Notes: generated by a model from the letters alone, not told the origin. Shown: positions 26,241-55,562, counted from the stretch's first letter. The stretch: DNA of 64,000 bases from Myxococcales bacterium (GCA_002728755.1 PBVT01000035.1:22260-86259), one strand, 5' to 3'. Translations and numbers: made by a program.

Positions 26241-26413
26241 GTGGCTTCTCCTGGCGGAAGTGCCGAAGGCGGAAGTGCATATAAAATTTCTGGTACAAAC
26301 ACCGCTACTTCATACGCGAGCTGATCGGCTAAACCAAATCTTTACATCAAAATCAATAGTCAAAACACGGAAGTCGTAAACTAATTCAAATAAAAACGCC
26401 CAAAATTTCTTCC

Positions 26414-28255
26414 TCAGCTTCCTTCCTTTCCCGCATGTTCGGAACGAAGAGGAGGCTCTTCGCATTCCCTGCGCCCACCACTTTGAAGTTCTCTACGTAG
26501 CTGCATGAGCTGCAATTTCTCATCTCGAAGAGCGTTCAAGCGAGCTTCGTTCGACGTGCGTTCAGCAATATCAATCTCTGCTTGAACCCGTCGGCTCTCT
26601 CTTTCAACATTGGCCAATTCAAGACGAAAAAGAATTTCAAGATACATGGCTTCTGCTTCAACATTTTCGACGGGAACGGTCTGTTCAAACAGAAGCTCGC
26701 GATGAAGCTTTTCAACCGCCGGATCAGATTTTGTATCTGTTTCCGGGTCGGCGAGCTGACAAAATAGACGTGTCAAAACGTCTGCCTCGATCAAACCAGC
26801 ACCGCCATCATCAAGAAATCGTCGAGCAAGATCCGGGTGGCGTGTAAGTAGAGATCCGAGAAAAAGTTCATCTCGAGACAGAGTTACGTCTTCAATCGGC
26901 TCGTTCGTCGGTTCCGAAGACGGTATCGCTTGATTCCGTCGTGCCCCTGTCGACTTTTCCTGACGTAGACGAGCTCGAAGATCACGATCGGTAACGGTGT
27001 CTTCTATTCCGAGCAGGCGATATAGGTTCCAAGCCGCAGCCATGCTGGCGGCTTCCTCCGTAAACCGGGAGATTATGTCCATACCTTCACCGATGATTCG
27101 GCCCAGGGCTGCCGGCGACGTACCATGTTTCTCCCGCAGGCTTCCTACCAGGTAATGAACAGCTGGCTGCGCAGACGCCAACACGGTCTGGAGCTCTTCT
27201 GGATTACTCCCCGCCATATCATCTGGATCACTGCCCTCGGGTGGTCTCGCGACGAAGACATCGAGTCCAGCCTCGAAGAGTGAAGGTAGTCCACGAAGAG
27301 TAGCGGCTTCACCAGCACTATCCCCATCGTAGAAAAGAACAACCTCCGAGACGAACCGAGCCAGTATCGTTGCTTGTTCCGACGTCATTGCCGTACCTAG
27401 AGGTGCCACGGTCGCGACATAGCCATTCTGATGTAGGCGAACAACGTCAACGTTTCCTTCCACCAAGATCGCACGTCCATCCGCTCGCCATGCATCGCGA
27501 GCCTGGGGCATCCCGTAAAGGACTCGACCTTTTCGATACACACCCGTTTCGGGGGAATTCACATATTTCGCTTCATTTGTGTCCGTCTCGAGAGTGCGGC
27601 CCGAAAATGCGACGACCTCTCCGGCCGGGTCTTGAACCGCAAACATGACTCGATTACGAAACCTGTCGTAATAGCCAGAACCACCCTGTTTCTGCTTAAT
27701 CAGCCCCGCAGCAGCCGCGGCCGGGATCAGGTGCCGGTGGGTTTTCATCAGGTGGTTGATTAAGCCATCCCACCCCGCAGGGGCCAAGCTCAGTCGGAAC
27801 TTCGACGCGATCTCCCGGCTGAGACCTCGCACCTCGAGAAACTCGCTAAAATCCTTCGATTGAGCAGCACAATTCTCGTAAAACTGTTGTGCGACGCGAT
27901 GTACTTCGAGCAACTCCCGGCGTCCTGTTCCAGGCTTCGATGGTCGGGAATCCTGTTGCGTCGGAACTTCTAAACCCGCACGGCTCGCAAGATCTGTAAC
28001 AGCATCTACAAAAGAATAGCCGTGCAATTCTGTGACAAAGCGTATTGCATCACCGCCACGCTGGCACCCAAAACAATGGTAATACCCGCGATCCGGATGG
28101 ACATGGAATGATGGCGTCTTTTCCTGATGAAACGGACAAAGGCCCTTATAGCTCGCACCTGCCTTCTTCAGCTCAACATAACTACCGATGAGCTTAAGTA
28201 AATCCGTACGATCTACCACCTCCCGTACAAATTCGTCGGGAATGCGTACCGCCAT
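26414..28255 (-). CDS. dnaG: DNA primase
   Basis: Zinc-ribbon motif CPFHQEKTPSFHV...YHCFGCQRGGD, followed by a TOPRIM region (ILVEGNVDV...FYDGDSAG). Confidence 0.93.
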   Translation of the reverse strand: MAVRIPDEFVREVVDRTDLLKLIGSYVELKKAGASYKGLCPFHQEKTPSFHVHPDRGYYHCFGCQRGGDAIRFVTELHGYSFVDAVTDLASRAGLEVPTQQDSRPSKPGTGRRELLEVHRVAQQFYENCAAQSKDFSEFLEVRGLSREIASKFRLSLAPAGWDGLINHLMKTHRHLIPAAAAAGLIKQKQGGSGYYDRFRNRVMFAVQDPAGEVVAFSGRTLETDTNEAKYVNSPETGVYRKGRVLYGMPQARDAWRADGRAILVEGNVDVVRLHQNGYVATVAPLGTAMTSEQATILARFVSEVVLFYDGDSAGEAATLRGLPSLFEAGLDVFVARPPEGSDPDDMAGSNPEELQTVLASAQPAVHYLVGSLREKHGTSPAALGRIIGEGMDIISRFTEEAASMAAAWNLYRLLGIEDTVTDRDLRARLRQEKSTGARRNQAIPSSEPTNEPIEDVTLSRDELFLGSLLTRHPDLARRFLDDGGAGLIEADVLTRLFCQLADPETDTKSDPAVEKLHRELLFEQTVPVENVEAEAMYLEILFRLELANVERESRRVQAEIDIAERTSNEARLNALRDEKLQLMQLRRELQSGGRRECEEPPLRSEHAGKEGS

Positions 28256-32382: not shown

Positions 32383-33269
32383 AGTTCAAGCGCTCTCCAG
32401 ACCGGATCGGGTCGCTATTCCTGATTGGACTCCTGTTTTTCGGCGCCGCTTGTTCCTCGAAAGGGGACGGTGAACGACGAACAGAAACCGTGAACAATAG
32501 CGCTGTCGAAGCCAAATTGAAGACTGCTTGGCGCGACGCCAAAACAGCCGTTCAGTCTCTCGAAGTGATGGCCAGGAATGCGGATTCATACACCAAACTA
32601 CTCGAGAAACATCGGAGAAATTTCCAGGCTATCGGTATTTTTGTAGCGATCCCTTTAGAGCCAAAGATTCCGGCGCTTCAGGATACTCTTACGAAATATG
32701 GCCAAACACTGGGTCTCCAACTCGACCACTTCTCGTCTACGCCGGATGACACCATGGGCACGCCTCTACCCGCGGAATTCGACGGACCGGGGCCATTCCA
32801 ATTCAGCGACGACCAGCTGGTCGGCGAGGTCCCCATCTCCTTTCACCTAAAACCACTGAATCTCGATAAGGTTGAGCTCTTCTGCCGCGGCTTGCATGAG
32901 CATGTCGAGCGACTGATTCTTCTGCGAGAGGTCAAAATGACCGCCAATGGAGCCGAAGTAAACGCTTCAGTGTTCTTTTTTCAGGATATTCGGGCACCGA
33001 TCGAAAAACTCCTCCTGCCGAATAGAGAACAGATCTTCGACCACGTCGGCCTGCCTAATTCGGGACCAGACTGCGAAGGCTCAAAGACATGTTCCGAGCT
33101 CATTGGAAAGATCGAAACGATACTCAAGGATGCCTCTGCATATGAAGCGAAGGCACAACAAGCTCTCAGCTATCTAAGCCAGGCCGGTCTATGGGAAGCC
33201 AGAGCCGCAGCATTTGAACAACGACAACAGAGAGTGCATACGGTTCAATATAGCCAGATTCTACGGTAG
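32379..33269 (+). CDS. hypothetical lipoprotein
   Basis: In-frame GTG at 32379 overlaps the stop of the preceding gene (GTGA) and gives VKFKRSPDRIGSLFLIGLLFFGAAC (lipobox). The ORF-tool start 32304 would overlap the upstream gene by 79 nt. Confidence 0.55.
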   Translation: MKFKRSPDRIGSLFLIGLLFFGAACSSKGDGERRTETVNNSAVEAKLKTAWRDAKTAVQSLEVMARNADSYTKLLEKHRRNFQAIGIFVAIPLEPKIPALQDTLTKYGQTLGLQLDHFSSTPDDTMGTPLPAEFDGPGPFQFSDDQLVGEVPISFHLKPLNLDKVELFCRGLHEHVERLILLREVKMTANGAEVNASVFFFQDIRAPIEKLLLPNREQIFDHVGLPNSGPDCEGSKTCSELIGKIETILKDASAYEAKAQQALSYLSQAGLWEARAAAFEQRQQRVHTVQYSQILR

Positions 33270-34781
33270 GTCGGTCTGTACAGGCGATCCATCCCACGCC
33301 CACAACATAATCTCGAAACAGGCTCCATTGACCTGATGCACGAGACGAATCTCGCCTCCGTAGGACGTGATCAGGTTTCTGCACACAAATAGACCCAACC
33401 CTGTTCCCTTACCTGGGGCCTTTGTCGTCACAAAGGGGTCGAAGATGCGGTCGCCAACGTCGGTAGAGATTCCCGGTCCATCGTCCATAACCAGCAATCG
33501 GACCATCTCACCGTCCTGCTCCGCCTTCAGCGTAACATTCCCATCACCGCCAATGGCATCACCCGCGTTGATGATAAGGTTCAATAGAACCTGCTCCAGA
33601 TGACCGGCAGCGATGTTTACTCGTGGAAGGGTCTCTTCAATCTCTGTCGTAATATGAATATTCTCAAAACGAAGCTGTGGCCGAATTAGCTCAAGAATTT
33701 GAACGAGAACCGCAGATATATCTGCATTCGGTGGGGAGAGTTCCCCTTCGTGACGCGAAAAATCCAGTAGATTACGAAGAGTTTGATTGATTCGTCCAAG
33801 CCCATTCTGAACACGTGTAATGTACTGGCTTTGCTCCTCTGGTGTTACATCTGGAGCGTTCAGAAGATCGAGATACCCCGAAACAATTCCAAGTGGATTC
33901 CCCACCTCATGGGCAATGCCCGCAGCCATAACACCGGCCTGCGCCAATTGCTCGGAACGGACCAACGTATCTCTAGCGTCCGACAGCTCTTCGTGGATCC
34001 GTTCCAATTGCTCCAGGCGAAATTGGAAACGATCGTGGATTTGCTCCTGCGTACGCACAATCTCGTTGAAGGACTCCGCGATCTCCCTATATTCCACGGG
34101 CCCTCTCCCTTGGAAAAAGAAGCGAATACGAGTCGTAGCTGCCCGGTTCATTGCGTGATTGACTCGGCGTAGGGGGCGAACCACTACAAAGAAAAATGCT
34201 AGATAGCCCACCACAACAACCAACATCCACGCCAAGAGTGCAAATGGCACCAAACGCCGCATATGTGTCACCCGATCACCACGGAAATCACTCTGGGCGA
34301 CCATTACATCAAAGCGGCGCCACTCCCCACCATCACCCTGCACCTTAACCGACATTACACATAAACGAATCTTCGATGGGCCCAGTGGTCCTATGTTGCA
34401 CATAAGACTATCGCCAGAAACATGGGACAGAACCTCGGCCAGCTTTGGAATCGATCCAAGTGGGTTTTTACCGGCCTCCTCTTTCGGAGAGAAATACGGT
34501 CTGATCTCTGGGTAACTTGGACGCCAGATACCCCACACACGGGCGTATTTTTTGCGGACCATACTAATGAGCCCATCCAGTCGTTGTTCAAACGCCCGCC
34601 CTACCTGCCGTTTCGCCACGGAATCTTTGACGTATTCACGAAACTCATTCCGATTTTGCAGCTGCTCATCGTAACTCATAACCGACGAAGCAAAATGGAC
34701 TGTGACCCCTGTTGCGAGACCGCAAACCAAGAAAAGAATCACCAAAACCCAACTTCTAGTACCCATTCTGAACTCAAACAC
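33261..34781 (-). CDS. membrane sensor histidine kinase (HAMP-HisKA-HATPase_c)
   Basis: Two TM segments, H-box AHEVGNPL, N-box LLNLIINAGDA, G-boxes DDGPGI and GTGLGL. Confidence 0.88.
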   Translation of the reverse strand: MFEFRMGTRSWVLVILFLVCGLATGVTVHFASSVMSYDEQLQNRNEFREYVKDSVAKRQVGRAFEQRLDGLISMVRKKYARVWGIWRPSYPEIRPYFSPKEEAGKNPLGSIPKLAEVLSHVSGDSLMCNIGPLGPSKIRLCVMSVKVQGDGGEWRRFDVMVAQSDFRGDRVTHMRRLVPFALLAWMLVVVVGYLAFFFVVVRPLRRVNHAMNRAATTRIRFFFQGRGPVEYREIAESFNEIVRTQEQIHDRFQFRLEQLERIHEELSDARDTLVRSEQLAQAGVMAAGIAHEVGNPLGIVSGYLDLLNAPDVTPEEQSQYITRVQNGLGRINQTLRNLLDFSRHEGELSPPNADISAVLVQILELIRPQLRFENIHITTEIEETLPRVNIAAGHLEQVLLNLIINAGDAIGGDGNVTLKAEQDGEMVRLLVMDDGPGISTDVGDRIFDPFVTTKAPGKGTGLGLFVCRNLITSYGGEIRLVHQVNGACFEIMLWAWDGSPVQTDLP

Positions 34782-34838
34782 CCGGTCCCAAATTCAGGGC
34801 TCAATCTGATGCTTTGCCTCGTATAAAATAGAATCCCG

Positions 34839-35732
34839 TTAAAGGTTCATGATCAACGGGTTTTGAGGCAACACATCGTGTAAAAGGTACCATTGCATGC
34901 CAGAAAGAGCGAGGAAGGGTCCGAAGGGTAGAGCAAGCATTCCCACGGATTCCTGTTCTTCTGCGACTACAACTCCTGCCATATCTGCGGAGCCGTCGGT
35001 GGTCTTCTGGTTTGGCCGGGACGTTAGCCACCAGAGTGTTGCAAATAAGGTGCCCTGCACAGACGCTGCAAACAAGATAAACGGTACAGAAGCAAAGCCA
35101 AGATAGGCTCCCAATAGCGCCATAAGCTTCACATCACCCATACCCATACCATCACGCCCACGTACAATCCGGTATGAAATCGCCACAAATAAGACGGTGC
35201 CTCCGCCGACCAGAGCCCCCACAGATGAATATTGCCAGTTGATACCCGTAGCTTCGACTGCGCCAAACGAGATTGCCAAACCAAATAGGGTGCCCGTTAA
35301 GGAGAGTCCATCCGGAATAATCATATGGTCGAGATCTATGACGCTGATGGCTAACAATAAAGCCATAAACGAGAGTCCGTGCAGTAGGTACCAACCCATC
35401 AGGTCTGGAGAACCCGCTAGATGTCTCGCGCGGAAAAAGACCAAGAGAAAGGCCACCGCACACATCGCCTCAATAACAGGGTAGCGAATGGGAATTTCCC
35501 ACTCACACTTACGGCACCGGCCACGTAATACAAGCCACGAAAAAATTGGGATGTTGTCGTAAAAGCGGATGGAATTGGCGCAATTCGGACAGCGGGAACC
35601 CGGGCTGACAATACTCTCGTTGGCCGGAAGACGTGCGATCAGGACGTTAAGAAAAGAGCCCACAAGCAGACCCAACATCGACAGAAACAAACCCAAGAAC
35701 GAGATGGGGATGTAGATACCACGTAGCTGCAC
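34839..35732 (-). CDS. pilD: type IV prepilin peptidase (A24 family)
   Basis: GTG start. N-terminal Cys motifs CPNC...CRKC. Catalytic Asp contexts VIDLDHMIIPD and GMGMGDVKLMALLG. Polytopic. Confidence 0.88.
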   Translation of the reverse strand: MQLRGIYIPISFLGLFLSMLGLLVGSFLNVLIARLPANESIVSPGSRCPNCANSIRFYDNIPIFSWLVLRGRCRKCEWEIPIRYPVIEAMCAVAFLLVFFRARHLAGSPDLMGWYLLHGLSFMALLLAISVIDLDHMIIPDGLSLTGTLFGLAISFGAVEATGINWQYSSVGALVGGGTVLFVAISYRIVRGRDGMGMGDVKLMALLGAYLGFASVPFILFAASVQGTLFATLWWLTSRPNQKTTDGSADMAGVVVAEEQESVGMLALPFGPFLALSGMQWYLLHDVLPQNPLIMNL

Positions 35733-35747
35733 TGCGATGCCCCTTTA

Positions 35748-38700
35748 TCAGTAGACGGTAAAGGAGCCGATCTTTACTCGATCGGGATCGTTTTTTGTCC
35801 GATAAGCCGGCGTCTTTACGCTTTCAATGCTAAGTCGGCTTTGATCTCCGCCCGACATATAAAACCCGAACCAGAGATCGTATCGACCCGATTTCGATCC
35901 AAACGGAATCTCCTTCTCAAATGTCGCCTCTACCACATCTCCAACCATCCAATGATTCGTTTGGAAACACCCACGGCACTGTTTGTCATCCGCTCCACCA
36001 GGTAGATTCAAGACCCAGAAATCGGCACCAATACGATCGGCACCAGGACTCTCAATATGTACAAAGATTCTGTAGTTCTTAAGAACACGGCCAATCACTC
36101 GAAAGAAGAGGCTGACCTTCACTTTCTGGCCACGACGCACAAGTCGTTTTGAATTGTGAATCCGGTACGCGCTTAAGATTAACTTCTTTTCGAAATTGAC
36201 CTCGATCGGCTGTACACCGGGCAAGGCCATAACATCCTCGGTGGTATGTACCACACGGCGGAAGCGATTATAGTCCTTATCACCCTCCGAAATCTTGGAC
36301 GCGAGAAGATTGAGTCTGGAGGAACGAGAGTCGAGCACTGGGATATGCTTTCCACCACTGCTTTTGCGATAGGTGTGGTTCAGAGAGCTGAGCTTTCGAC
36401 TCGGCACAACAACATAGGCTCGAGAATCCTTCATACCCGTACTCTTTGGGTTATGCGCCCGACGAAGCGTTACGGTTGCGGGACCATCACCCAAACCCAA
36501 CGGAGGTCCTTGATAGCGAACCGTGTTGGTTCCACTCGAAACAACAACACGCTCTCTGGCTCGTTGGTTCCCATCACCAATTACCCGTGCATCCTTCCAG
36601 CGGTTCAACGCCCACTGAACTCCATCGAATGTTAGTTCATAACCAAACGCTTCGACCTCACCCCGCACCGGATCCTGGCCGGCCATAGCGAGATTATACC
36701 GTTGCACGGATTGTGATGGAATGACTCGTAAGGGATATCCACGAAAGAATACGGTGTCGGTATCGTTGCCAATCACGATCCCCGCACGACCTTTCGGATC
36801 ATCTCCGGTTCGAAGCTCTGCCCCCTTCCATTGATCTGGTTTCCACTTGGCCGTCCTATCGGTAAGGAATTGGCGAACGCGGCTGGTGGTACCTGCAAAT
36901 TCCGTTTGCATCCGATCCACACGGTAATACCCGTCTGGTTTCCCAGCTCCCTGCTCAAGAGGCGGTCCTTCATAGGTTAGAGTTGTTGCTGTGTTGGAGG
37001 TCACTCTACGAGGAAAAGACAACTCATATCTTGTTAACCGACCATTACTTCCCGTGGGCATCGAAGCCCCCACAAATTCGAGCCGGGTTTTGTCGTTGCC
37101 CGTTACCGTTACATCACCTCGGTTTCGAATACGCAGTGTCGCCCCTTTCCACTCGTCTCTCGTCCATTTCTTTCTGGTGTCCACCAGATGGTTTGATGAC
37201 CAATTCGTTGAGGTCCCAACTTCACTCTTTCCATTATTCCCTTTGCCATCGATGATTTGTGCGCCAACCCAGTCATCTTTAGCCCAACTCTTATGCTCAT
37301 CTGTAATGACGCCACTACCCAAGACGCCAACGCCTGTATCGGCCGTGTAGTCGCGAACCCCATCACCGTCAGCGTCATTCCTGGGGTCGAAACTGCGAAC
37401 AACGACGTGTTCGGGCAGATCCAGAAAGCGAGATGTCTCCGGTCGCACCACCACATCTTCTCGCCCACGCAGAATATCAATGACGGTCTTCTCATTCTTT
37501 ACGTGAGGTATCGACTGTTCATAGAAATTATTCTTGCTATGGGTCGCCCCTGCGGCCCCATGCCAGAAAATATTCGGCCCGATATCCGAACGACGTTCGG
37601 CATTCTTATACGTTTCCAACAAATGCTTATGGGACACGTGAAGGCTCAGATCGGGCACAAACCGAAAGACGACGAGCCCCATCAACACAAAAGATAAAGC
37701 CACAAGACCAGCAAAGTGAATTCCAGGACGTTCGATGGCCCTTGCCATACGACTGAGCGCATCCCGCCAGTTATGGTCACGATCCATGTAGACGATCATC
37801 GTAGCGATAACATCCACCATCACTATCGCCAGTGGTATCCAGGCTAGATGCCGCATCATAGTAGCTTCACCGGTGCGCATCCCCATAGCGGGAGCAGTTG
37901 CCATAAACAACGCGGCAAGGACACCGCTGATTGCTACCCCCATATGAAGCCTGCTCCGCCCTACTCGAGCCTCAAAGCTTTGCATACTGCGGGTCCACCC
38001 CATGATGGACCATAGGATAAGACATATGATCGAAATCAGCAGCAGACCCGAACCCATGGCCTGGGACATCGTCTCACCCACTGGACTTGGCTCTCCAACA
38101 AGCCCCAGACCATCCGGAAGGGTGGAACTGGAAGCAAAATCTGGTGCCGCACCCGACGGTAGATAGGGGACAGCAGCCGTAACCGCATGCATCGATGCCG
38201 ATGGAACCAACGCACCCGGTGACTCTGCGCTATAGCTCGTCGCTGCCGTCACGTCTTGTAACATTCCTCCCAGGGGAATAGCCGTAGTCACCAGGATTCC
38301 CAACAACGACACAATTATGGTGGCTCTCTTGAGAGCTACAGACACAAATACCCGTGGCCAACACCGCAGAAGAAGAAACCATAAAACCAGGCCATACAAG
38401 GTATAGGCCCAAGTGGCGTTAAAAAGACCTTCCTTGTCTGCGACCACAGCGCCGTACAAGATTAACCACACGCTGGCCGCCAGGACAGCCTCCTCTCGAA
38501 AGAGATCCTCGCGATGTTCTGCTACCCAAAGGCCAATCAGTATCGCCCCGCAAAGGATAAGAGGGTGTAGTAGTCCGAGAAAAATATTCTGGGGATTCGA
38601 AACGGCGGAGAAAAGCAGTGTAAAGGCTCCAAGTACCCCCAAACAAAGGGCTATTAAATCCAGACTACGACCTAGCCCAAACGGATTTAACAGTGCACTC

Positions 38701-41204
38701 TCTTGTGGTGGCGAGTGTGCACTCCGTTGCCGCCTCCAAACACGCTGAATCCAACCCAACAGCTTGAATAAAGAGTGAACCAACACGGCAACTAGCATCG
38801 AGACAAAGAAGAACCGAACCGGCGACCCCAGTAGGAGCGCCTCATTCAACTGGTTCAACATATGTGGGCCTGTAGTTTCGGGGTTCAGGATAATGATTCC
38901 CTGAATGACTCGAGCCACAAGAAAAATCAGCCCCCCTATAATCACAAATAAGAGCGCATACAAGACACCCGAAAATGCACTTTCATTGCGACTCCACCGA
39001 CGTAGTCGAGCAAAGATTTCTCCGCCCTGAATCGACGCGTATAGTATCCAACCCAGAAATAGCAGACCTACGAGTCGAAACATGCTGTCCAACCCAACAT
39101 TCGTTGGATACTGCACCCCACGGTGGAGCTTTTCAAAAGCGAAAACAAAGGGAGGATCCCAGGTCACAGAGCCCACCAGGGGATGTGGGGAAAGCTTAAG
39201 CTCTGCCAGGAGCACGTATAGACCCAACACCACGAAAAGGGCGCGAACAGGCCAGATAAGACCTCCCTTTCCCATTCGAACCGCCATAGCTGCTACACCA
39301 ATCGCAAGAGCAGGTGCCGCAGGATAGACAAAATGACCCAGCTTCAACATGGTCGCAGCGATTACGACAAACGGCACCGTAGCCCATAGGACAATAAGGC
39401 CATCAATACTGCTATTGTCCTCCTTTGCATCAAACCAGCGGCGAGCCACACCGGCCATCCCAAAAGGCACAAGGACAATCCAGGGTAATAACCCAAAGCC
39501 CGTCTGCAACATTAAGAAATCAAAGGAACGGTCGGAGCCACCTGGACCACCCTGGAAGAGATGGTTCGTTGCCGTGAAATGAGACATGAAGCCCCATGTA
39601 TCGGAACGGATTAAACCGCCAACTGCGCCGACAAAAATCACGGCCAGAATCAGGCTGGGCCAGTACAACCAGCGCCCAAAGAGATCGATGTCATCGGCCT
39701 CGCCATCTCCTTGGGACAGAAAGAGTCCGGGGAAGAATTGAAGTGCAAAGAGAACGACAACCAATACGGCGGGCACCCAGATTCTCATGTCCGAGAATAT
39801 CGCGCCCATCCCATCATTTGGTGCAAGAACCTCTGCAAAGAGAACCCCCAAGACCAACCAGGAAAACAAAGCAACATTCCGTAACGATGCGTTTCGACGC
39901 CACTCAAAAAGCATCAGAGCGAGAGCGATCATACTGAGCATCAATGTGCCAAAAACACCCTTCTCCAAGAATAAGAGTACATATCCGGCACCAAAGAGAC
40001 TCAATCCGGTGAACCTTCGCCCCCGCATGAGCCGTTCTAGACCGAGAACGCCAAGCCCCAGAAATGCAATAAACCCAATCTCACCCCCAAAGTTCCGCGC
40101 CTGAACGGCAAGATACGGCGATGTTAATAAGATTGCAGAACTAAATGCTCCTCCCCAGGGCCCAATCAAATGGGTCGCGAAGATGAACGTGATCATAATT
40201 GCCAAGATGCCGAGGAGAGCTCCCGGCAATCGGGTCGAAAACTCACTCGTACCAAACAGGTCATAGGACCAGGAAACCAGCCAATACCGCAGGGGAGGTA
40301 CCCCATAAACGCCACCATCATTCGGTCGGACCCGAACCAGCTCACTGGGGAGAGCGCGCGCGCCTCCAAGGCTCTTTCTCAGTACGTCGGCATCTCCAAT
40401 GGTGCGAACATTCAATCCCTTCGCCGCGAGTAGCGTAGCGACGGATTTGGAATTGTCATTATCAGTCGAAGGCCCGTCTTTTGGGGGTGCAGGATCGGAC
40501 CCAGCATCCGAGACGATCAGAAAGAGGCTGCCTGGCTGATAAGTCCGGCTGAAATCGGCCCAGTCCGATAGCTTCTTCTCAAGATCTTCACCAGCTTTAG
40601 CCATCGCCAGGTTCTTTGTAATCTCAGCCAGCTTCGTCTTGCGCTTCTTTATGAGCTTTTCAAGCCCTGGCAATGGTTTCACCGGCAGAGCGGTGTCTCC
40701 TTGTATGACCTGCCTTTGTTCTTTCTGTTTGGCGTCCAGGTCTACCAGCTCCTGTTCGACCGACGCCTTTTCCTTCACTAACGTATCCTGTGCAGGCCCG
40801 TGTTCGTAGAAGGCTGCCAGTTTATCATTATCGGCGGTCTCCACTGGGACGATCACCACATGATAGTCGTAGGACTTTAGATGGTTCCTTGACCGATTCA
40901 GGTGGCTCTTCAGGCTTCCTGTCGTGGCTTTTCCAGAACCATCGAGCCAGAAAACACGAACACCTGATTTTGGATCTTTGACGATCTCCTTATACCCATC
41001 ATCGAGCCCACTTTCTGTGGCTAAAACCAGTACCTGTGGAGACGATGTTATCGTTCGAGCGATACTCGCGGGGTTTATCTCCCACGGATCCCATAAGCCA
41101 GGAGAGCCCAGACGGAACAACAAAACAACCGCACTCACAACGAGTGTCGTCCAAGCCAGACGTCTGGTCAGTGTTCCGGTGTCAGGTTTTGGGTTGTCCA
41201 ACAT
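35748..41204 (-). CDS. giant (1818 aa) polytopic GT-C-like (ArnT/PMT_2-type) glycosyltransferase with inserted loop domain and large C-terminal repeat domain
   Basis: The N-terminus LFRLGSPGLWDPWEI and, ~260 aa later, PPLRYWLVSWSYDLFGTSEFSTRLPGALLG match the two halves of the ArnT/PMT_2 first-loop signature. More than 20 hydrophobic helices follow. The C-terminal ~600 aa is soluble with four W-x3-W-x-GA repeats. Confidence 0.75.
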   Translation of the reverse strand: MLDNPKPDTGTLTRRLAWTTLVVSAVVLLFRLGSPGLWDPWEINPASIARTITSSPQVLVLATESGLDDGYKEIVKDPKSGVRVFWLDGSGKATTGSLKSHLNRSRNHLKSYDYHVVIVPVETADNDKLAAFYEHGPAQDTLVKEKASVEQELVDLDAKQKEQRQVIQGDTALPVKPLPGLEKLIKKRKTKLAEITKNLAMAKAGEDLEKKLSDWADFSRTYQPGSLFLIVSDAGSDPAPPKDGPSTDNDNSKSVATLLAAKGLNVRTIGDADVLRKSLGGARALPSELVRVRPNDGGVYGVPPLRYWLVSWSYDLFGTSEFSTRLPGALLGILAIMITFIFATHLIGPWGGAFSSAILLTSPYLAVQARNFGGEIGFIAFLGLGVLGLERLMRGRRFTGLSLFGAGYVLLFLEKGVFGTLMLSMIALALMLFEWRRNASLRNVALFSWLVLGVLFAEVLAPNDGMGAIFSDMRIWVPAVLVVVLFALQFFPGLFLSQGDGEADDIDLFGRWLYWPSLILAVIFVGAVGGLIRSDTWGFMSHFTATNHLFQGGPGGSDRSFDFLMLQTGFGLLPWIVLVPFGMAGVARRWFDAKEDNSSIDGLIVLWATVPFVVIAATMLKLGHFVYPAAPALAIGVAAMAVRMGKGGLIWPVRALFVVLGLYVLLAELKLSPHPLVGSVTWDPPFVFAFEKLHRGVQYPTNVGLDSMFRLVGLLFLGWILYASIQGGEIFARLRRWSRNESAFSGVLYALLFVIIGGLIFLVARVIQGIIILNPETTGPHMLNQLNEALLLGSPVRFFFVSMLVAVLVHSLFKLLGWIQRVWRRQRSAHSPPQESALLNPFGLGRSLDLIALCLGVLGAFTLLFSAVSNPQNIFLGLLHPLILCGAILIGLWVAEHREDLFREEAVLAASVWLILYGAVVADKEGLFNATWAYTLYGLVLWFLLLRCWPRVFVSVALKRATIIVSLLGILVTTAIPLGGMLQDVTAATSYSAESPGALVPSASMHAVTAAVPYLPSGAAPDFASSSTLPDGLGLVGEPSPVGETMSQAMGSGLLLISIICLILWSIMGWTRSMQSFEARVGRSRLHMGVAISGVLAALFMATAPAMGMRTGEATMMRHLAWIPLAIVMVDVIATMIVYMDRDHNWRDALSRMARAIERPGIHFAGLVALSFVLMGLVVFRFVPDLSLHVSHKHLLETYKNAERRSDIGPNIFWHGAAGATHSKNNFYEQSIPHVKNEKTVIDILRGREDVVVRPETSRFLDLPEHVVVRSFDPRNDADGDGVRDYTADTGVGVLGSGVITDEHKSWAKDDWVGAQIIDGKGNNGKSEVGTSTNWSSNHLVDTRKKWTRDEWKGATLRIRNRGDVTVTGNDKTRLEFVGASMPTGSNGRLTRYELSFPRRVTSNTATTLTYEGPPLEQGAGKPDGYYRVDRMQTEFAGTTSRVRQFLTDRTAKWKPDQWKGAELRTGDDPKGRAGIVIGNDTDTVFFRGYPLRVIPSQSVQRYNLAMAGQDPVRGEVEAFGYELTFDGVQWALNRWKDARVIGDGNQRARERVVVSSGTNTVRYQGPPLGLGDGPATVTLRRAHNPKSTGMKDSRAYVVVPSRKLSSLNHTYRKSSGGKHIPVLDSRSSRLNLLASKISEGDKDYNRFRRVVHTTEDVMALPGVQPIEVNFEKKLILSAYRIHNSKRLVRRGQKVKVSLFFRVIGRVLKNYRIFVHIESPGADRIGADFWVLNLPGGADDKQCRGCFQTNHWMVGDVVEATFEKEIPFGSKSGRYDLWFGFYMSGGDQSRLSIESVKTPAYRTKNDPDRVKIGSFTVY

Positions 41205-41300
41205 TTAGACCGTGCGGTGTTGCTTCAGGGGCGGTGAAACATAATCGCTGCGTCCGTGTTTCGCAACGATAGAAGAGCGGATTCAGAGAGTGCCCGTTCC

Positions 41301-42326
41301 CTACTCCTTCCAGAGCAGCTTCCATGGGTGTCGCTTGATATCTCGGACTGCTTCCTTGATGTCATCATAGAGTTCAGGATCGTTCAGAATGGCCCCTACC
41401 AATCCACGGCCCTGACGCACATTACCAACCAGTTGTTCCGCATGGTTTACCATAGAGTCCAACCGTTCGAGCATACCGAGGATCCGAGAGCGGCCCTCTT
41501 CCCCGATCTCACTATAATTCGCTACAGCCCCCTTCAGGACAGTCAACGTCTCCGCAGATTCACTCAAGAGTCCCGGCATTCGCTTTGCGACAGATGCTGT
41601 AATGACCCGACTGTTTTTTGCTGTATGACGACCGTCAACGATCATCGCATGGACTTCACTACCATCTCCTAGGGCCGTGTTCAGAGAGCCTATAAGCACC
41701 GTGGTTTCTTTCAGCAATGAGGTCATATTGCTTACGGTCCCACCCATCCCATCTTTATTTGATTTCACCAGATCTGCCGCAACCTTCAGAGTCTTATCGG
41801 CGTTTTTGATCAATGAACTGATCGAACCCTCATTCTTGGACAATAGATCGGTCATACCATCGAGTAATTTGATTGCACGACTACTGACCGACGCGATGCT
41901 GAACGGCTCCTGCCCTCGAACCACACTACCGGGTGGAAGCGGTGGTTTCGATGCCGACCCTGGGTCGATCTCTATATATTTCGACCCAAGAACACCGGAG
42001 GTCGTGATCGTAAAGCTGGCATCCTCACGAACGCTCCCGGCCTTTCCGGTTGCGACTCCGATTTTCACTCGAACAAGAGGCGAGCTCCGGCCCGTTGTTC
42101 CCTCTAACGGACCATGGAACTTGAGAGCCTGAATCTTCCCCGATCGTACCCCACCAATCTTTACCGGCGCACCGGGAGCCAAGCCCCCAACTCGACGAAA
42201 CTCAACGTAGTAAGTCCGTTGCTCCTCAAATTGTATGTCGCCTAATGCAAATACAAAGAGCACCAGCAGGACAACTGAGGATAGAACGAGGAAGCCAACC
42301 TTTATTTCAATGGCACGTTCCTTCAT
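41301..42326 (-). CDS. MlaD/MCE-domain protein (orphan, no adjacent mlaE/mlaF)
   Basis: N-terminal TM (IKVGFLVLSSVVLLVLFVFALG), MCE core YYVEFRRVGGLAPGAPVKIGGVRSGKI, long helical C-terminus. Confidence 0.85.
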   Translation of the reverse strand: MKERAIEIKVGFLVLSSVVLLVLFVFALGDIQFEEQRTYYVEFRRVGGLAPGAPVKIGGVRSGKIQALKFHGPLEGTTGRSSPLVRVKIGVATGKAGSVREDASFTITTSGVLGSKYIEIDPGSASKPPLPPGSVVRGQEPFSIASVSSRAIKLLDGMTDLLSKNEGSISSLIKNADKTLKVAADLVKSNKDGMGGTVSNMTSLLKETTVLIGSLNTALGDGSEVHAMIVDGRHTAKNSRVITASVAKRMPGLLSESAETLTVLKGAVANYSEIGEEGRSRILGMLERLDSMVNHAEQLVGNVRQGRGLVGAILNDPELYDDIKEAVRDIKRHPWKLLWKE

Positions 42327-42423
42327 CGTGTCTAGATATCAACCTTCCATTCCGAGTGGCGTCATTGTACCGGCCGCCCCGAAAAGGGCAATGAAAACAT
42401 GTGACAGGATCCTTTCATCCACA

Positions 42424-42462
42424 AAAAATGAAAAAGGGCGAGGTAAAAACCCCGCCCTTTTT
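42424..42462 (-). terminator. rho-independent terminator after the 601-aa lipoprotein gene
   Basis: The minus-strand RNA would read AAAAAGGGCGGGGUUUUUACCUCGCCCUUUUUCAUUUUUU. The arms are 10 bp (42431-42440 / 42453-42462) followed by a U-run. It lies 27 nt past the stop at 42489-42491. Confidence 0.75.
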
Positions 42463-42488
42463 ATGGCTTTCGAACAGTTCTGAGCGAA

Positions 42489-44294
42489 CTACTTGCCACA
42501 AGCACCGGCCGGGGCAGCGCCACCAGGGGCTTGACCGGAAAGCTTCTTGTCGCAGTTTTTCAAGCCCGGGTTGTAGATGCAGATATTCTTGCGAATGGTC
42601 TCTGCGTCCACGCCACTGAACTTATGCTTATTGTTGGCGAGCCACGTGGGACTGGCGCTGATGCCAAGGCTCTTCGCGAGCTTGAGATCGTTACCAAGAA
42701 GAGTCTTACCTTCGCCGCCGGTAGAGCACTTCTCGATAACCTTTACATCAATTCCATTCACCGCACATTCCTGCCAATTCTCCGACCGGATGTTCTTGTT
42801 CCGGCAGAGGATGTAGTCCATGTACTTGTGGTTCTTTGGGTAATGCGTAATGGCACAAAGCTCGCGGATATTCTCGCGGACCTCTGTGTCACCTTTCAGC
42901 GAACTGAAACCAGTTTTGCTGTTTGGGTCTACGTCATTAATGAAGTGGATTTCGAAATCAAGGTCATCACCGAAATTCTTAAGAACCTCGTCCATGGCGT
43001 TTAGCGCACGAACACCATAGGGGCATTGGCTCATTACGAATACATCCAACTTGTTTTTCTGCTCTTTGCGACAGATGAGTTGAGCGGTACAGGTAGGATC
43101 TTCACAATCCACCTTGCCGTTACCCGTGTTGTCGGTTTTGTCATCGCAGATTTCCGCCGTGGGATCCCACTTCGCGCCAATGGCCAATACGCTATACGCA
43201 CCATATGGCTTGAGGTAACGCTGTACGCGCTGGTATCCCTCACCCTTCTTTACCGAGTCGGTGAAAAGAATGGCGGGAAGAAGAAGAGGACCGTTGGCCT
43301 TGACCATTTCGTCATACTTGGCCCGCCCGGCGTCCGTGGCGTAGTTGTAGGTTGTCTCGGATAAACCGGGGAAGAGGCTCTTAAGCCGTCCTACAAGACG
43401 CTGAGAGTTACAGGCTTTGCAGCGGGTATCGGTCAACACGATGGTCTCGACCTTAACCGGCTCAGGAATGTTGGCACATGCTTCGGGGCGCGTACCCTTG
43501 AACTCATTGCAGATGGACCGCATGAAATCATTCTCGGTACGGCCACCGCCATAACGACGACCCGAAAGGAAGATTGTGGGGCTACCCGTAGCCTTCTTGC
43601 TCTGGGCTTTCTCAAGGGAAGCTCCGAAAAGGTCTTTACCTTCCTGGCCTTCCGCACAAGCCTTCATCTTCGCTACATCCAGACCAACTTCCTGTGCACA
43701 GCTTTCACCATTCGTCGGAATAGCGCGCATGTTCTTATTCTGACAGAGAATGAAGTCCATGTATTTGAAGTCAGCCGCGTAATGGTTGATGGCACATAGC
43801 TGCCAGATATTTCCTTTCACTTCGCTCTGGCCATGCATCGCGTTGTAACCAGTCTCCTGGTTGGGGTCCTTATTACCGATAAACTCCAGATGGAAATCGA
43901 TATTGGCTCCCATTTTGTCCAATACCGGGTCGATTGCTGCTTCGACCTGGGTACCAAACGGACATTGGGACATCACGTAGAACTCTAATTTGACCTTCTC
44001 GTCGGTCTTTCCTGTCTTTACGGTCGACTTGGCTGGAGCAGCAGCGGGAGCCGAAGGAGCAGCGGCCGGCGCCGAAGGAGCGGCCGGGGCAGCAGCCGGA
44101 TTCTTTCCAGCGTTATCAGCTGTTTCACCAGCGTTATTCTTATTTGGATCTTCGTTGCCCCCAGGGGAGCCCTGTGTATCTTGAGGCCCTTGATTGTCGT
44201 CATTGCCTTTCTTCTTACAGCCGGCAATTCCCAGAGCCATCACTACACTTACCATCAAGACCAGACAGAAACCGGTTTTCAAGATGCGATGCAT
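42489..44294 (-). CDS. lipoprotein with two GILT-like (thiol-reductase family) domains flanking a thioredoxin-like middle domain
   Basis: Signal and lipobox (ALGIAGC), then an Ala/Pro low-complexity linker. Two paralogous ~165-aa domains: aa ~101-270 (nt 43485..43994) and aa ~415-582 (nt 42549..43052). They share F-V-M-S-Q-C-P-F/Y-G, (H/K)G-x-x-E-V-x-x-N-I-x-x-L-C-A-I-x-H-Y and KYMD(F/Y)ILC(Q/R)NKN. The HG..E..GN....C pattern recalls the GILT family. Confidence 0.6.
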   Translation of the reverse strand: MHRILKTGFCLVLMVSVVMALGIAGCKKKGNDDNQGPQDTQGSPGGNEDPNKNNAGETADNAGKNPAAAPAAPSAPAAAPSAPAAAPAKSTVKTGKTDEKVKLEFYVMSQCPFGTQVEAAIDPVLDKMGANIDFHLEFIGNKDPNQETGYNAMHGQSEVKGNIWQLCAINHYAADFKYMDFILCQNKNMRAIPTNGESCAQEVGLDVAKMKACAEGQEGKDLFGASLEKAQSKKATGSPTIFLSGRRYGGGRTENDFMRSICNEFKGTRPEACANIPEPVKVETIVLTDTRCKACNSQRLVGRLKSLFPGLSETTYNYATDAGRAKYDEMVKANGPLLLPAILFTDSVKKGEGYQRVQRYLKPYGAYSVLAIGAKWDPTAEICDDKTDNTGNGKVDCEDPTCTAQLICRKEQKNKLDVFVMSQCPYGVRALNAMDEVLKNFGDDLDFEIHFINDVDPNSKTGFSSLKGDTEVRENIRELCAITHYPKNHKYMDYILCRNKNIRSENWQECAVNGIDVKVIEKCSTGGEGKTLLGNDLKLAKSLGISASPTWLANNKHKFSGVDAETIRKNICIYNPGLKNCDKKLSGQAPGGAAPAGACGK

Positions 44295-44621
44295 GTTTCT
44301 TCCTCAGTAAAATTTCGTATTAAAACGGTGTTGTTACACTTGTATGGTCAACACACCGTTTGGCGGAGAGACGGGTTTCTAACAGAACGCCTCGGTAGGA
44401 GGCAACAGATTTGAACAAAAAAGATCTTCCAAAGATTCCGTAATAGGCCAAATCCAGGGATTCATGCCATCACACGGACCAGCTAAAGCCCTCCCTGCAC
44501 ACTAAAAAACCTTATTAATTACAGTGTATTGTAAAATCGTTGGCTATCCTGTGGGTCTCGTCGTACACTAGATCAATCCACTCGATCTATTCGGATCGAA
44601 GAACAGAAGCGAACACCCTAC

Positions 44622-45284
44622 ATGTCACCACAAGCCATCATACGACGTTCCTTACACCGCCGCTCATTTCGAACGGCAGGCTTCACGCTTATTGAATTAA
44701 TGTTCGTCGTGATTATCCTCACAGTCCTGACGTCTGTGGCAGTGGTCAACTTTCATGGGCATAAGCGTCGCGCACAAATTCAGGAAGCTGTCTCCTTTCT
44801 TGGTGCAATCCGAATTCGCCAGGAGTCCTATTTCGCTACGTACTCTCAATATGTGGATACTGGGAAAGCGTATAATGACTTCTATCCAACGAATGTATGG
44901 CCATCGGGCTGTAAACAGGATCCAGCGGAGTGGGATATCGGCTGTCCCACCGACCAGGCTGCCTACCCTGGCTGGTGTGCTCTAGGCGTCAACCCTGTGG
45001 ACCAGGGGGGAACATACTTTCAATACATCTCTATCGGCTGGGCACCGGGGGACACGGTACCGGGCTGTTCGAGTGGAGGTACGTGTCTGATAACCGAACC
45101 AAACCGTCCATGGTGGATCGCGGTTGCGCAGGGAGACCAGCATTGCACGTCGGAAGAAAAGTTTTCTACGGCCATAATGTCCAGCCAACTACGCACTGTA
45201 ATTGTACTCGATGCGGCTGAAGGTGACACCAGCACCGATTGGGGTACAATTGGTCAGGAGCAGGACTTTGGCGGCGCCCTTTAG
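44622..45284 (+). CDS. type IV pilin-like protein (prepilin N-terminal cleavage/methylation domain)
   Basis: The G|FTLIELMFVVIILTVLTSVAVV motif has Glu at +5 after the predicted cleavage site. A 20-aa basic leader (MSPQAIIRRSLHRRSFRTAG) precedes it. The C-terminal region is Cys-containing. Confidence 0.85.
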   Translation: MSPQAIIRRSLHRRSFRTAGFTLIELMFVVIILTVLTSVAVVNFHGHKRRAQIQEAVSFLGAIRIRQESYFATYSQYVDTGKAYNDFYPTNVWPSGCKQDPAEWDIGCPTDQAAYPGWCALGVNPVDQGGTYFQYISIGWAPGDTVPGCSSGGTCLITEPNRPWWIAVAQGDQHCTSEEKFSTAIMSSQLRTVIVLDAAEGDTSTDWGTIGQEQDFGGAL

Positions 45285-45415: not shown

Positions 45416-47254
45416 ATGTGCCTTCGCATTATAAGTTTGTTTTTCATCGCCTCGCTCTGGATAAGCTGCGCGCCAGACGAGAGTTCAGAACAAATTGGTG
45501 AAGGCAGTGGTATCTCGGTGGTCTGGGCCGAACTATCGCAAGACGGTGTCTGTTCACCAGCGCCTGATAGTAATGATGCGGAACAGTTGGTTCTTGGGGA
45601 CGGCTTTCCTGCTGATATCGACCGACTGGTAATACGCATCTTCAACGGCCAAGCCGTGCAAGAGCGGGTGTTTCACCTCGACTCCACGGAATTATCTGGA
45701 CGAGGTATCCTCCTCGCGGACCAGATTGTCCCAGAGATCCCCTATACGTTGCAGATTTTTGGCTGCCAGGGCTCCGACTCAGCCCCCCGCTGGAACGGTC
45801 TCTTAACCAACGTCATAGTGGAGAAACATACAAAAAAGGGGCTCCACATTTTACTTACGCCGGAAGATGCGCTCGCCTGTCCAACCGAATCCGTACTGGT
45901 AGGCGATGTACACGTGGGGCAATCGCAACCGCCCGAGCCTGTAAGCTTCCCGGCTACGGCGAAACTGGATAATGGCAATTCGATTATTCTTGGTGGAGCA
46001 CAGGTGGAAAATAATGTTTTCACCATGTCCGATACGATCGTTTTGTTCCACACCAATACAGGAACCTATGTGCCACTGCAGGGAGGGTTGACCATTCCCA
46101 GGGCGATGGCGAATACCACCACGCTAAACGATGGCAACATTCTAGTCATGGGTGGCACGACATCTCTTGAAACCAAGGGAAGTGACCTCTCCAAACCGTT
46201 CTTCCACCCTGGTTCCAGTCCAACTCCATTAACGGCTGATCATTTTGTTGAGTACATCGACGTAGACACCGGTCAGAGCACAGCCCTGAAGATCCAGGGG
46301 GCGTTCACCGCCGGAGTGCACTCCCTTCCTTTGATGGCTGCTACCTCTTACGATGTTGTGCGAGACAATCTGTTCATTGTGGGAGGGATCGACGCCAACC
46401 TCGACCAACCCTTCTCTAAGATGATTCGCGTACACGGGCTTCTGACCAATCCGGGTGCGCCTCTTATCGAAGTTGTTGATCTGGTGACCCCCCGCGTTGG
46501 TAGCCAGCTTCTTCAATTGCCTACAGGAGATGTCATCGTATTCGGCGGAAACCCTGATGGTGAAGGTTCGAATATCGTCGAGTGGATGAACGCGGCAGGT
46601 ACTGTGAGTGGAGTTCTCCCCATAAGTTTCAAGGGAGGCTTAACGGTCGATACAGTTCGATCCCCAAGCTACGGAACCGCAGTGGCTCTTCCATCCTCCG
46701 GTGATACACACCGCTTTCTCCTCTTTGGTGGAATGGCTCCGACGGGCGGTAGCTATCTCTCCACGATTGACCTGGACACACCATACGAGCTGGCGGTCGA
46801 TACAAGTACTACACCTCCTGGACTCACCCTACGTCCGATTCCCCTCGATGATTCGACCCTGGGGCTGACCCGACGCTCCTTCTTCGGCATGGACGTCGTC
46901 GACTCGAAACGCATCGTTATCGCCGGCGGGATCGCTGGCCTCGACACGATTGAAGGTTTTGATGGGTGCGATCCAGCACTAAACGATCTTGGTCAATGCC
47001 TCCGAGACGACGCTGTGGTGATTGAATATACCGATTCAGGAAAAACGAACGGCCCTGCGATGACCATCAAGGCCGAGACTACGATTGGACCATCCGTAGG
47101 AATTCGCACGCAAGCCCGCAATGACGGAGCGATTCTACTAACGACGGGGTTGAACGTCGTTGGCGGCGGCACACCATCGACAGGAGCAATCTCCATTCTC
47201 TGGAACCCATTGCTACCTGCGGATGCGAAGTTATGCGATGCATCAAAACCCTAA
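45416..47254 (+). CDS. lipoprotein with Kelch-like beta-propeller repeats
   Basis: Signal MCLRIISLFFIASLWISC. Periodic blade-like motifs end in hydrophobic-x-GG (IILGG, ILVMGG, LFIVGG, VIVFGG, FLLFGG, IVIAGG). Confidence 0.55.
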   Translation: MCLRIISLFFIASLWISCAPDESSEQIGEGSGISVVWAELSQDGVCSPAPDSNDAEQLVLGDGFPADIDRLVIRIFNGQAVQERVFHLDSTELSGRGILLADQIVPEIPYTLQIFGCQGSDSAPRWNGLLTNVIVEKHTKKGLHILLTPEDALACPTESVLVGDVHVGQSQPPEPVSFPATAKLDNGNSIILGGAQVENNVFTMSDTIVLFHTNTGTYVPLQGGLTIPRAMANTTTLNDGNILVMGGTTSLETKGSDLSKPFFHPGSSPTPLTADHFVEYIDVDTGQSTALKIQGAFTAGVHSLPLMAATSYDVVRDNLFIVGGIDANLDQPFSKMIRVHGLLTNPGAPLIEVVDLVTPRVGSQLLQLPTGDVIVFGGNPDGEGSNIVEWMNAAGTVSGVLPISFKGGLTVDTVRSPSYGTAVALPSSGDTHRFLLFGGMAPTGGSYLSTIDLDTPYELAVDTSTTPPGLTLRPIPLDDSTLGLTRRSFFGMDVVDSKRIVIAGGIAGLDTIEGFDGCDPALNDLGQCLRDDAVVIEYTDSGKTNGPAMTIKAETTIGPSVGIRTQARNDGAILLTTGLNVVGGGTPSTGAISILWNPLLPADAKLCDASKP

Positions 47255-54437: not shown

Positions 54438-54497
54438 GCATGTGGATTACACATCTCCTAGGCTAGCCATCGACGTAGACGGCGGGGAAGCATCTTG

Positions 54498-55502: not shown

Positions 55503-55562
55503 TTCGAACCCTCGGTTTAAACAAAGACGCTCGAATGGAAAAAATCGGCTACAATAGCCGGT

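Follow-up and report, generated by a model that had tools for sequence, protein, structure and literature searches.

A giant GT-C glycosyltransferase gene kept next to the prepilin peptidase gene pilD in Myxococcota

We analysed a stretch of 64,000 nucleotides from a marine Myxococcales bacterium (GCA_002728755.1, PBVT01000035.1:22260-86259), hereafter the window, which carries on its minus strand a gene for an 1818-residue glycosyltransferase of the GT-C type (the giant), followed by the gene of the prepilin peptidase PilD. The conserved unit at this locus is the GT-C/PilD pair, joined in some lineages by a sensor histidine kinase (HK), and not the set of four genes on which the original prediction, made from the sequence alone, had been built. 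Recomputation confirmed all open reading frame (ORF) coordinates, strands and gaps, and together with Pfam assignments it reproduced exactly the predicted order of the MlaD-like, giant, PilD and HK genes. The features of the locus are as follows (aa, amino acids).

33261..34781, minus strand: sensor HK (Pfam HisKA and HATPase_c above the curated cutoff)
34839..35732, minus strand: prepilin peptidase PilD, 297 aa (Pfam A24_N_bact and Peptidase_A24)
35748..41204, minus strand: giant GT-C glycosyltransferase, 1818 aa (Pfam PMT_2)
41301..42326, minus strand: MCE/MlaD-like protein, 341 aa (Pfam MlaD)
42364..42391, minus strand: promoter-like TTGCCC-N16-TACAAT, 5' of the mlaD ATG (consensus match only)
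42431..42462, minus strand: intrinsic terminator of the thioredoxin-lipoprotein gene upstream (14-bp stem, 7 of its pairs GC, between an A-run and a T-run)
42489..44294, minus strand: double-thioredoxin lipoprotein, 601 aa (Pfam GILT/DSBA/thioredoxin, two copies)
44622..45284, plus strand: prepilin, 220 aa (Pfam N_methyl)

The mlaD-like, giant, pilD and HK genes form one co-directional unit with gaps of 96, 15 and 57 nt, respectively. The pilD gene starts with a GTG located 15 nt past the stop codon of the giant, and an AAAGGGG resembling a ribosome-binding site lies 7 nt 5' of this GTG. The terminator scan predicts no terminator between the mlaD-like gene and the giant; ahead of the mlaD-like gene, the terminator and the promoter-like site follow one another in that order. 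The terminator hairpin (42462..42431, minus strand) is the top-scoring one of the region scan, in agreement with the original prediction, which had described it as strong. The prepilin gene is 2.3 kb away on the strand opposite to the four-gene unit, and the pilin-like character proposed for it is borne out by N_methyl and TIGR02532 scores above cutoff.

Pfam searches with essentially all large ORFs of the 64-kb window revealed no mlaE/mlaF, no pilB/C/M-Q and no type II secretion system (T2SS) genes; the absence of the first two groups had been correctly anticipated. No GT2, lipopolysaccharide (LPS) or exopolysaccharide (EPS) genes were found in the same searches. The surroundings are of a housekeeping kind, with rpoD, dnaG, miaB, rsmB, recD2, an RNase II-like gene, gatA/B, grpE, hisD, lolA and a gene for a penicillin-binding protein.

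The giant is an ArnT-type GT-C glycosyltransferase by profile, sequence match and fold, as its earlier description as GT-C-like had implied. Residues 303-456 match PMT_2 (PF13231) with 44.3 bits (cutoff 26.1; E 2.9e-11), and the sole sequence match in the PDB is ArnT of Cupriavidus metallidurans (5ezm). When the loop-1 insert described below is left out of the query, the ArnT match rises to E 2.2e-6 and spans transmembrane helix (TM) 1 through TM3. AlphaFold2 (AF2) models rest on shallow alignments, with a mean pLDDT (predicted local distance difference test) of 59 and 49; in the model of aa 1-1200 (mean 59), the well-predicted parts are TM1, aa 300-450 and aa 560-670. Foldseek ranks ArnT first for the giant model (E 5e-6), followed by Pmt4, AglB, STT3, ALG9/12 and AftA, all of which are GT-C enzymes. 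Within this superfamily, the giant belongs to a Myxococcota GT-C clade without a characterised member and is an orthologue of neither ArnT nor TfpW. Its parts map to the window as follows.

41079..41099, minus strand: loop-1 catalytic-type motif G36-L-W-D39-P-W41-E42, invariant in alignment A1
40305..41042, minus strand: periplasmic loop-1 insert of ~250 aa (aa 55-300), from the AF2 model and alignment A1
37635..40298, minus strand: transmembrane region, including the GT-C core (aa 303-~760) with R370, R559-x-F-D562 and GFG..PW575
35751..37634, minus strand: periplasmic C-terminal region, aa 1190-1818, from alignments, a repeat search and AF2

According to hydropathy, aa 16-1190 hold ~22 hydrophobic or TM segments, and the remaining ~630 aa form a soluble tail. 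The N-terminus should be cytoplasmic, given the positive-inside rule and the topology usual for GT-C enzymes, and the D39-P-W-E42 motif would therefore sit in periplasmic loop 1. D39 and E42, the acidic loop-1 residues expected of a class A GT-C enzyme, are invariant within the family, at least 90% conserved among 21 PMT_2 proteins, and shifted relative to ArnT. Besides GLWDPWE, the residues A49-R50, R370, R559-x-F-D562 and GFG..P574-W575 are invariant or nearly so (alignments A1, A3 and A6). In the alignment of loop 1 with ArnT, LVGPDEGRYAEISREM pairs with LWDPWEINPASIARTI, and ArnT 'GPDE' lies opposite 'WDPWE'; the Asp of the ArnT 'PDE' motif thus corresponds to W41 of the giant, which has an Asp two residues earlier. 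ArnT 'FEKPP' reads 'YGVPP' in the giant, so that the Glu-Lys pair is replaced by G-V. In ArnT, the 'PDE' Asp is said to be D55 and the Glu-Lys pair E84/K85, as Petrou et al. reportedly described in 2016. GLWDPWE is shared by many Myxococcota PMT_2/PMT proteins of ordinary size and is found in proteins annotated as 'phospholipid carrier-dependent glycosyltransferase'; we therefore read the motif as an active variant and not as a dead site. Judged by these conserved residues, catalytic competence of the giant is plausible.

The loop-1 insert comes after the first juxtamembrane helix and before the PP-motif and is modelled by AF2 as a five-stranded alpha/beta domain. It is present in all long forms of the family and missing from P0007 and P0008 in alignment A1; a coiled-coil hairpin within it (aa 126-220) is specific to the genus of the window. 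A relationship of the insert to Get3, PPK2 or other P-loop proteins was considered and rejected, since the fold matches are weak (E>0.05), no P-loop motif follows the first strand and a periplasmic location is predicted for the domain. The extra TM helices (aa ~760-1190) vary in number within the family, and aa 760-1150 are poorly conserved and poorly modelled.

The C-terminal region contains two conserved segments, LSxHVSQKH/NFY and NH.FR..SGG/D.RSS, which follow the last TM and probably correspond, by analogy, to the periplasmic alpha/beta domain of ArnT. Four W-x3-W-(K)-G-A repeats are located at aa 1307, 1347, 1454 and 1531 of the giant, in a repeat region (aa ~1250-1594) for which AF2 gives no reliable structure; one copy is found in P0003-P0005 and none in P0006. 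The protein ends in a beta-sandwich with CxGCF.T.HW..GD and a pLDDT of 70-89, and confidence in the C-terminal AF2 model is limited to this part (aa ~1594-1818). Foldseek relates the sandwich to NPC2, RhoGDI and Wzt-CBD-like domains at a generic level (E ~1e-4, TM-score 0.5-0.63). Neither the loop-1 insert nor the repeats nor the terminal domain match any Pfam family at E<=5. The TM-coding part of the giant also stands out by an AT skew of +0.31 (38001-40000), consistent with hydrophobic, T-rich codons read from the minus strand; the opposite value of -0.31 at 24001-26000, in rpoD, probably reflects a non-conserved region of that gene.

To place the giant in its family, we collected 183 relatives by a genome scan and kept 80 of them for locus comparison. 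Synteny was determined with tblastn and blastp; ORF calling in the relatives' loci was crude, and the taxonomy of metagenome-assembled genomes (MAGs) is as labelled in the records. According to the record titles, nearly all relatives are Myxococcota MAGs (Myxococcales, Anaeromyxobacteraceae, Bradymonadales, Sandaracinaceae and Polyangiaceae), with a few obviously wrong labels. L010 is titled A. dehalogenans and L015/L017 Anaeromyxobacteraceae, so that Anaeromyxobacter is a candidate for a cultivable carrier of the pair. Three records (L023, L030 and L045) are titled Klebsiella pneumoniae or Enterobacteriaceae despite a Myxococcota-type locus, almost certainly through mislabelling at the source. 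Family size was taken from the genome scan and an exhaustive representative search, in which 579 50%-identity clusters match the profile of the C-terminal module at E<=1e-30; word-indexed protein searches returned 21 proteins with the A1 profile and one with the A2 profile. The members fall into length classes of ~750-950, 1000, 1350-1420 and 1800-2300 aa. With the exception of the congeneric L001, the N-terminal part of the long-form clades is only 20-33% identical to that of the window's giant.

Despite this divergence, 36 of the 50 GTDB species-level loci that extend far enough downstream have pilD 3' of the GT-C gene and on its strand, as do four of five loci reached via the protein database. 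The two genes are mostly separated by -3 to +60 nt. In a neighbour-joining tree built from the last 330 aa, almost every deep clade of long forms shows PilD adjacency, with two losses, in the LLDPWE clade and in the L004/L057 clade; the short-form outgroup is without PilD. A kinase gene follows pilD in ~11 GTDB loci from several clades as well as in L001 and L002, and a divergent DUF6178 gene is found 5' of the GT-C gene in ~23 loci. When all neighbours are clustered, GT-C, DUF6178, PilD and HK are the only recurring families. The MlaD-like protein, the thioredoxin lipoprotein, the pilin, a Kelch lipoprotein and RecD2 occur as neighbours only in L001 and L006/L007, that is, in the genus of the window. 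The nearest relative, the marine 'Myxococcales bacterium' L001 (72% identity), shows complete synteny with the window. The expectation that all four genes would be syntenic in relatives thus holds for the GT-C/PilD pair and, in several clades, for the HK, and fails for the MlaD-like gene; the nearby pilin gene is likewise genus-specific.

The two clades that have lost PilD adjacency differ in what surrounds the GT-C gene. In the LLDPWE clade it stands beside dnaG-rpoD, with an mtnA-like gene and the gene of an M16 peptidase after it. We considered whether this subgroup represents a paralogue without W[DE]PWE and rejected the idea, as its proteins carry LLDPWE and are hence family members. In the L004/L057 clade, PilD is replaced, and a GT2 gene is located 3' of the GT-C gene within ~1.2 kb (L004 7592-8455, where it follows directly; L057 12165-13229). 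The encoded GT2 is most like polyprenyl-phosphate-sugar synthases (AglJ, PpgS, Dol-P-hexose transferase and ArnC), with scores below the equivalog cutoffs, and is a candidate for the donor-making enzyme of the GT-C family.

Two further observations concern neighbouring genes. The dnaG-rpoD genes adjoin the GT-C gene in L023, L024, L030, L032, L040, L045 and L046, and in the window they lie at 23802-28255, ~7.5 kb from the giant, which hints at an old positional link of the GT-C gene to the macromolecular-synthesis gene region. The DUF6178 protein (L002 2294-3949, L003 4691-6418 and ~23 other loci) is soluble, acidic and ~550-600 aa long, and its gene, the one most often met upstream in other genomes, is divergent from the GT-C/PilD pair; it has no relative in the PDB and no copy in the window. 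Literature searches found no paper on the GT-C/pilD pair, on GT39/PMT_2 proteins in Myxococcus, on DUF6178 or on this GT-C clade.

PilD and the pilin of the window are ordinary members of their families, and so, judging by its domains, is the kinase. PilD scores 118 bits with A24_N_bact and 71 bits with Peptidase_A24, and has C48xxC51, C73xxC76, DLDHMIIPD (aa 133-141) and G197-M-G-D200-V-K; by these motifs it is predicted to be a complete, bifunctional-type prepilin peptidase of family A24A. We considered whether PilD processes the giant itself and rejected this, because the giant has no G↓F-x-x-x-E motif at its N-terminus. The HK has two TMs (aa 12-30 and 183-201) enclosing a periplasmic sensor of ~150 aa, a weak HAMP match, HisKA and HATPase_c, as judged from Pfam and hydropathy. 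Its sensor domain is not conserved beyond the genus of the window, and it matches none of the NCBIfam equivalogs. The ORF and Pfam calls show no response regulator gene adjoining the HK, which is therefore an orphan kinase. The MlaD-like protein consists of one N-terminal TM, one MCE domain (PF02470, 57.9 bits vs a cutoff of 25.1) and a long helical tail; its score with the NCBIfam MlaD equivalog TIGR04430 is 68.6 bits, under the cutoff of 135. That the unit begins with its gene is specific to this lineage.

The prepilin carries a class III signal peptide, the leader of which ends at G20 and is followed by F21-T-L-I-E25 (cleavage context TAG↓FTLIELMFVVIIL). It scores 23.3 with N_methyl (cutoff 21.2) and 21 with TIGR02532 (cutoff 16.3), its mature part is ~200 aa long with six Cys residues, and its N-terminus resembles Myxococcota PilA. 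On these grounds it is a candidate substrate of PilD. Divergent from it lies the gene of the 601-aa lipoprotein (42489-44294, minus strand) with two GILT/DsbA-type thioredoxin modules, a pairing that we find in the genus of the window only (L001 and L007). Given the six Cys residues of the prepilin, the lipoprotein could be a partner dedicated to disulfide formation in a large pilin of the Myxococcota style. Directly 3' of the prepilin gene, a further predicted lipoprotein of 612 aa (45416-47254, plus strand; lipobox LWISC) shows weak Kelch/beta-propeller matches, all with Pfam scores below cutoff; by analogy, it might be a pilus-associated propeller protein resembling PilY1.

Elsewhere in the window, a 1244-aa ORF (57837-61571, plus strand) and adjacent ORFs of 529 and 451 aa (16195-19136, minus strand) have no Pfam match at E<=0.001. 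A cytoplasmic histidine kinase followed by an FHA-GGDEF diguanylate cyclase (54495-56498, plus strand) constitutes a signalling pair unrelated to the GT-C/PilD genes.

Our preferred interpretation, to which we assign a probability of roughly 40%, is that the giant is a polyprenyl-phosphate-sugar-dependent glycosyltransferase that is functionally coupled to PilD substrates. Class A GT-C enzymes use polyprenyl-phosphate-monosaccharide donors, and because of this behaviour and the GT2 neighbour in one clade, we infer that the giant would take its sugar from such a donor at the periplasmic face of the inner membrane. The sugar would then be passed to an acceptor in the PilD substrate pool, i.e., to type IV pilins or pseudopilins anchored in the membrane, or to part of their assembly machinery. 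PilD is not known to act on any proteins other than those bearing a class III signal peptide, and the conserved, predicted operon therefore most simply suggests an acceptor in a pilin/pseudopilin system. Cytoplasmic leader cleavage and N-methylation would, together with periplasmic glycosylation, represent co-expressed maturation steps, with the loop-1 insert, the W-x3-W-G repeats and the terminal beta-sandwich possibly serving as acceptor- or glycan-binding modules. The orphan HK may tune expression, and the MlaD-like protein, the thioredoxin lipoprotein and the pilin gene would be genus-specific additions.

The link to PilD is supported by the adjacency of the two genes, which is kept across deep divergence while the other neighbours, save DUF6178 and HK, have turned over. 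In the genus of the window, the 6-Cys prepilin and the double-thioredoxin lipoprotein beside the unit point in the same direction. Precedents come from other bacteria: TfpW is a GT-C enzyme that glycosylates a pilin (10.1101/2020.04.19.049825), glycosylation of PilA1 in Synechocystis is kinetically tied to processing by PilD (PMC8546353), and the Synechococcus glycosyltransferase Ogt has a cofitness of 0.97 with pilD (PMC9306852). Of the glycosylation and maturation module put forward in the original prediction, the GT-C identity and the connection to PilD are thus retained, and the MCE/pilin part is not.

Several points weigh against this interpretation. The acceptor is a putative one, proposed from gene context. 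The known pilin glycosyltransferase genes tfpO and tfpW adjoin pilA, not pilD. Two long-form clades and the short forms keep the GT-C gene without pilD, and the dnaG-rpoD/mtnA/M16 context of the LLDPWE clade looks like that of a general housekeeping role. Outside the genus of the window, no pilin-like gene was found within ~8 kb of the GT-C/PilD pair, and neither type IV pilus nor T2SS machinery is among the recurring neighbour families. The giant has a Trp at the position of the ArnT 'PDE' Asp, and the 'EK' before the PP-motif of ArnT is not conserved. The overall confidence of the AF2 models is low (mean pLDDT 59 and 49, from shallow alignments), and the generic match of the modelled sandwich would fit glycan or lipid binding equally.

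A bolder form of the same interpretation, which we regard as doubtful, is that the two genes represent an ancestral Myxococcota pilin maturation pair. The giant would then work with PilD and possibly bind it, every type IV pilin or pseudopilin would be glycosylated periplasmically during leader cleavage, and the loop-1 insert together with the repeat/sandwich tail would recognise the pilin. If true, pilins would here be glycosylated by a route other than those of TfpO/PglL and TfpW, and this route would be the first to be tied genetically to the peptidase instead of the pilin gene.

The main alternative, and a serious possibility, is that the giant is instead a housekeeping envelope glycosyltransferase with a non-pilin acceptor, and that its operon with pilD is old, co-transcribed and functionally unlinked, like rpsU-dnaG-rpoD. 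Candidate acceptors would be lipid A or the LPS core, a glycolipid, an exopolysaccharide, or secreted proteins and lipoproteins modified by broad PMT-like O-glycosylation. Two long-form clades and the short forms have indeed kept the GT-C gene without pilD, pilin genes are not near it in other genomes, and dnaG-rpoD adjoins it in one clade and lies ~7.5 kb away in the window; yet the tight or overlapping GT-C/PilD junctions survive very deep divergence, during which most other neighbours have changed. Although lipid A is the substrate of ArnT, the nearest relative with a solved structure, the giant scores far below the ArnT equivalog (14.7 bits vs a cutoff of 567), differs from ArnT in key residues and has no LPS or EPS genes around it in the window. 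The large, variable periplasmic repeats and the Wzt-CBD-like sandwich recall polymer-handling GT-C enzymes, and the size of the family (579 clusters at E<=1e-30) also agrees with a general role.

A dedicated module of the MlaD-like protein, the GT-C enzyme, PilD, the HK and the nearby pilin, with the MCE protein supplying or moving a lipid-linked substrate, appears improbable. In the window itself, the genes are co-directional with short gaps, no terminator is predicted between the mlaD-like gene and the giant, the promoter-like site and the terminator lie upstream, and the pilin and thioredoxin-lipoprotein genes adjoin. The arrangement is also fully kept in the 72%-identical L001, but beyond L001 and L006/L007 the MlaD-like, pilin and thioredoxin-lipoprotein neighbours are not found, and in ~23 other genomes the divergent DUF6178 gene takes the upstream place. 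Only about one locus in four has the HK, and the sensor domain of this kinase is not conserved. We rate this explanation low because the MlaD-like protein and the pilin are genus-specific. Finally, that the giant is a catalytically inactive membrane scaffold or sensor is hardly credible: W41 does stand opposite the ArnT 'PDE' Asp and the E/K pair is absent, but D39 and E42 are nearly invariant, DPWE is common to many ordinary-sized PMT_2/PMT proteins, R370, R559, D562 and P574-W575 are invariant as well, and a GT2 resembling polyprenyl-phosphate-sugar synthases accompanies the GT-C gene in one clade.

In Myxococcota, motility, predation, secretion and development are driven by type IV filaments, the pilins of which are unusually large. 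We know of no pilin glycosyltransferase in this phylum, and a GT-C gene kept in a predicted operon with pilD across most of a long-form family represents a concrete and testable candidate. Our analysis newly defines a GT-C clade with hundreds of sequence clusters, an unusual architecture and a previously undescribed, conserved and predicted operon with pilD. To our knowledge, neither a globular loop-1 insert nor a Trp at the canonical Asp position occurs in any solved GT-C structure. Even should the link prove non-functional, the analysis shows the MCE/GT-C/PilD/HK combination to be a local accident of which only the GT-C/PilD part is conserved.

Among known systems, the MlaD system has in common with the window an MCE domain protein, although this protein does not reach an equivalog-level score and no genes for MlaE or an ABC ATPase are present in the window. 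TfpW of the Pseudomonas aeruginosa group IV pilin loci is a GT-C pilin arabinosyltransferase of 646 aa with 11 TMs, a DDX motif and a TPR tail; its gene lies directly 3' of pilA, and the enzyme depends on D-Araf biosynthesis genes (10.1101/2020.04.19.049825). It demonstrates that GT-C enzymes can glycosylate pilins (10.1101/2020.04.19.049825). Compared with this description, the giant has DPWE in place of DDX, ~22 TMs, a beta-sandwich tail without a TPR match in Pfam, a gene 5' of pilD instead of 3' of pilA, and no sugar-precursor genes nearby; the TfpW precedent cited in the original prediction is therefore reduced to an analogy at the level of the superfamily, as motif, TM count, tail and gene neighbour all differ.

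The protein O-mannosyltransferases of GT39/PMT and PMT_2 (fungal Pmt1/2/4, actinobacterial PMT and human TMEM260) share the GT-C class A fold with the giant, for which Pmt4 is the third-best fold match. They also resemble it in an acidic loop-1 motif ending in Glu and in the possession of an extra luminal or periplasmic domain. PMTs use a polyprenyl-phosphate-monosaccharide donor, and their extra domain is thought to engage the acceptor. The giant itself is not a PMT: Pfam finds no PF02366, MIR or TPR match in it, the 'DE' motif of PMTs reads 'WE', and the extra domain is inserted in loop 1 and not in the MIR-bearing loop of PMTs. The other Myxococcota PMT_2 proteins with GLWDPWE (P0009-P0017, including some annotated as 'ArnT family') share the loop-1 motif and the core with the giant, but at 590-920 aa they are without the loop-1 insert and without the C-terminal module (SQKH...NFY...DxRSS...CxGCF).

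ArnT, the undecaprenyl-phosphate-L-Ara4N:lipid A transferase (PDB 5EZM/5F15; PMT_2, GT-C class A), is both the sole PDB sequence match and the best fold match. The giant is about three times longer, with ~9 extra TM helices, the 250-aa loop-1 domain, the periplasmic repeats and the beta-sandwich, and it has no arn operon context. It scores 14.7 bits with the NCBIfam ArnT equivalog NF009784 (cutoff 567), and the catalytic residues of ArnT are not preserved, W41 and G-V being aligned with the 'PDE' Asp and the Glu-Lys pair. Common to both proteins is the order of TM1, juxtamembrane helix, PP-motif and TM2.

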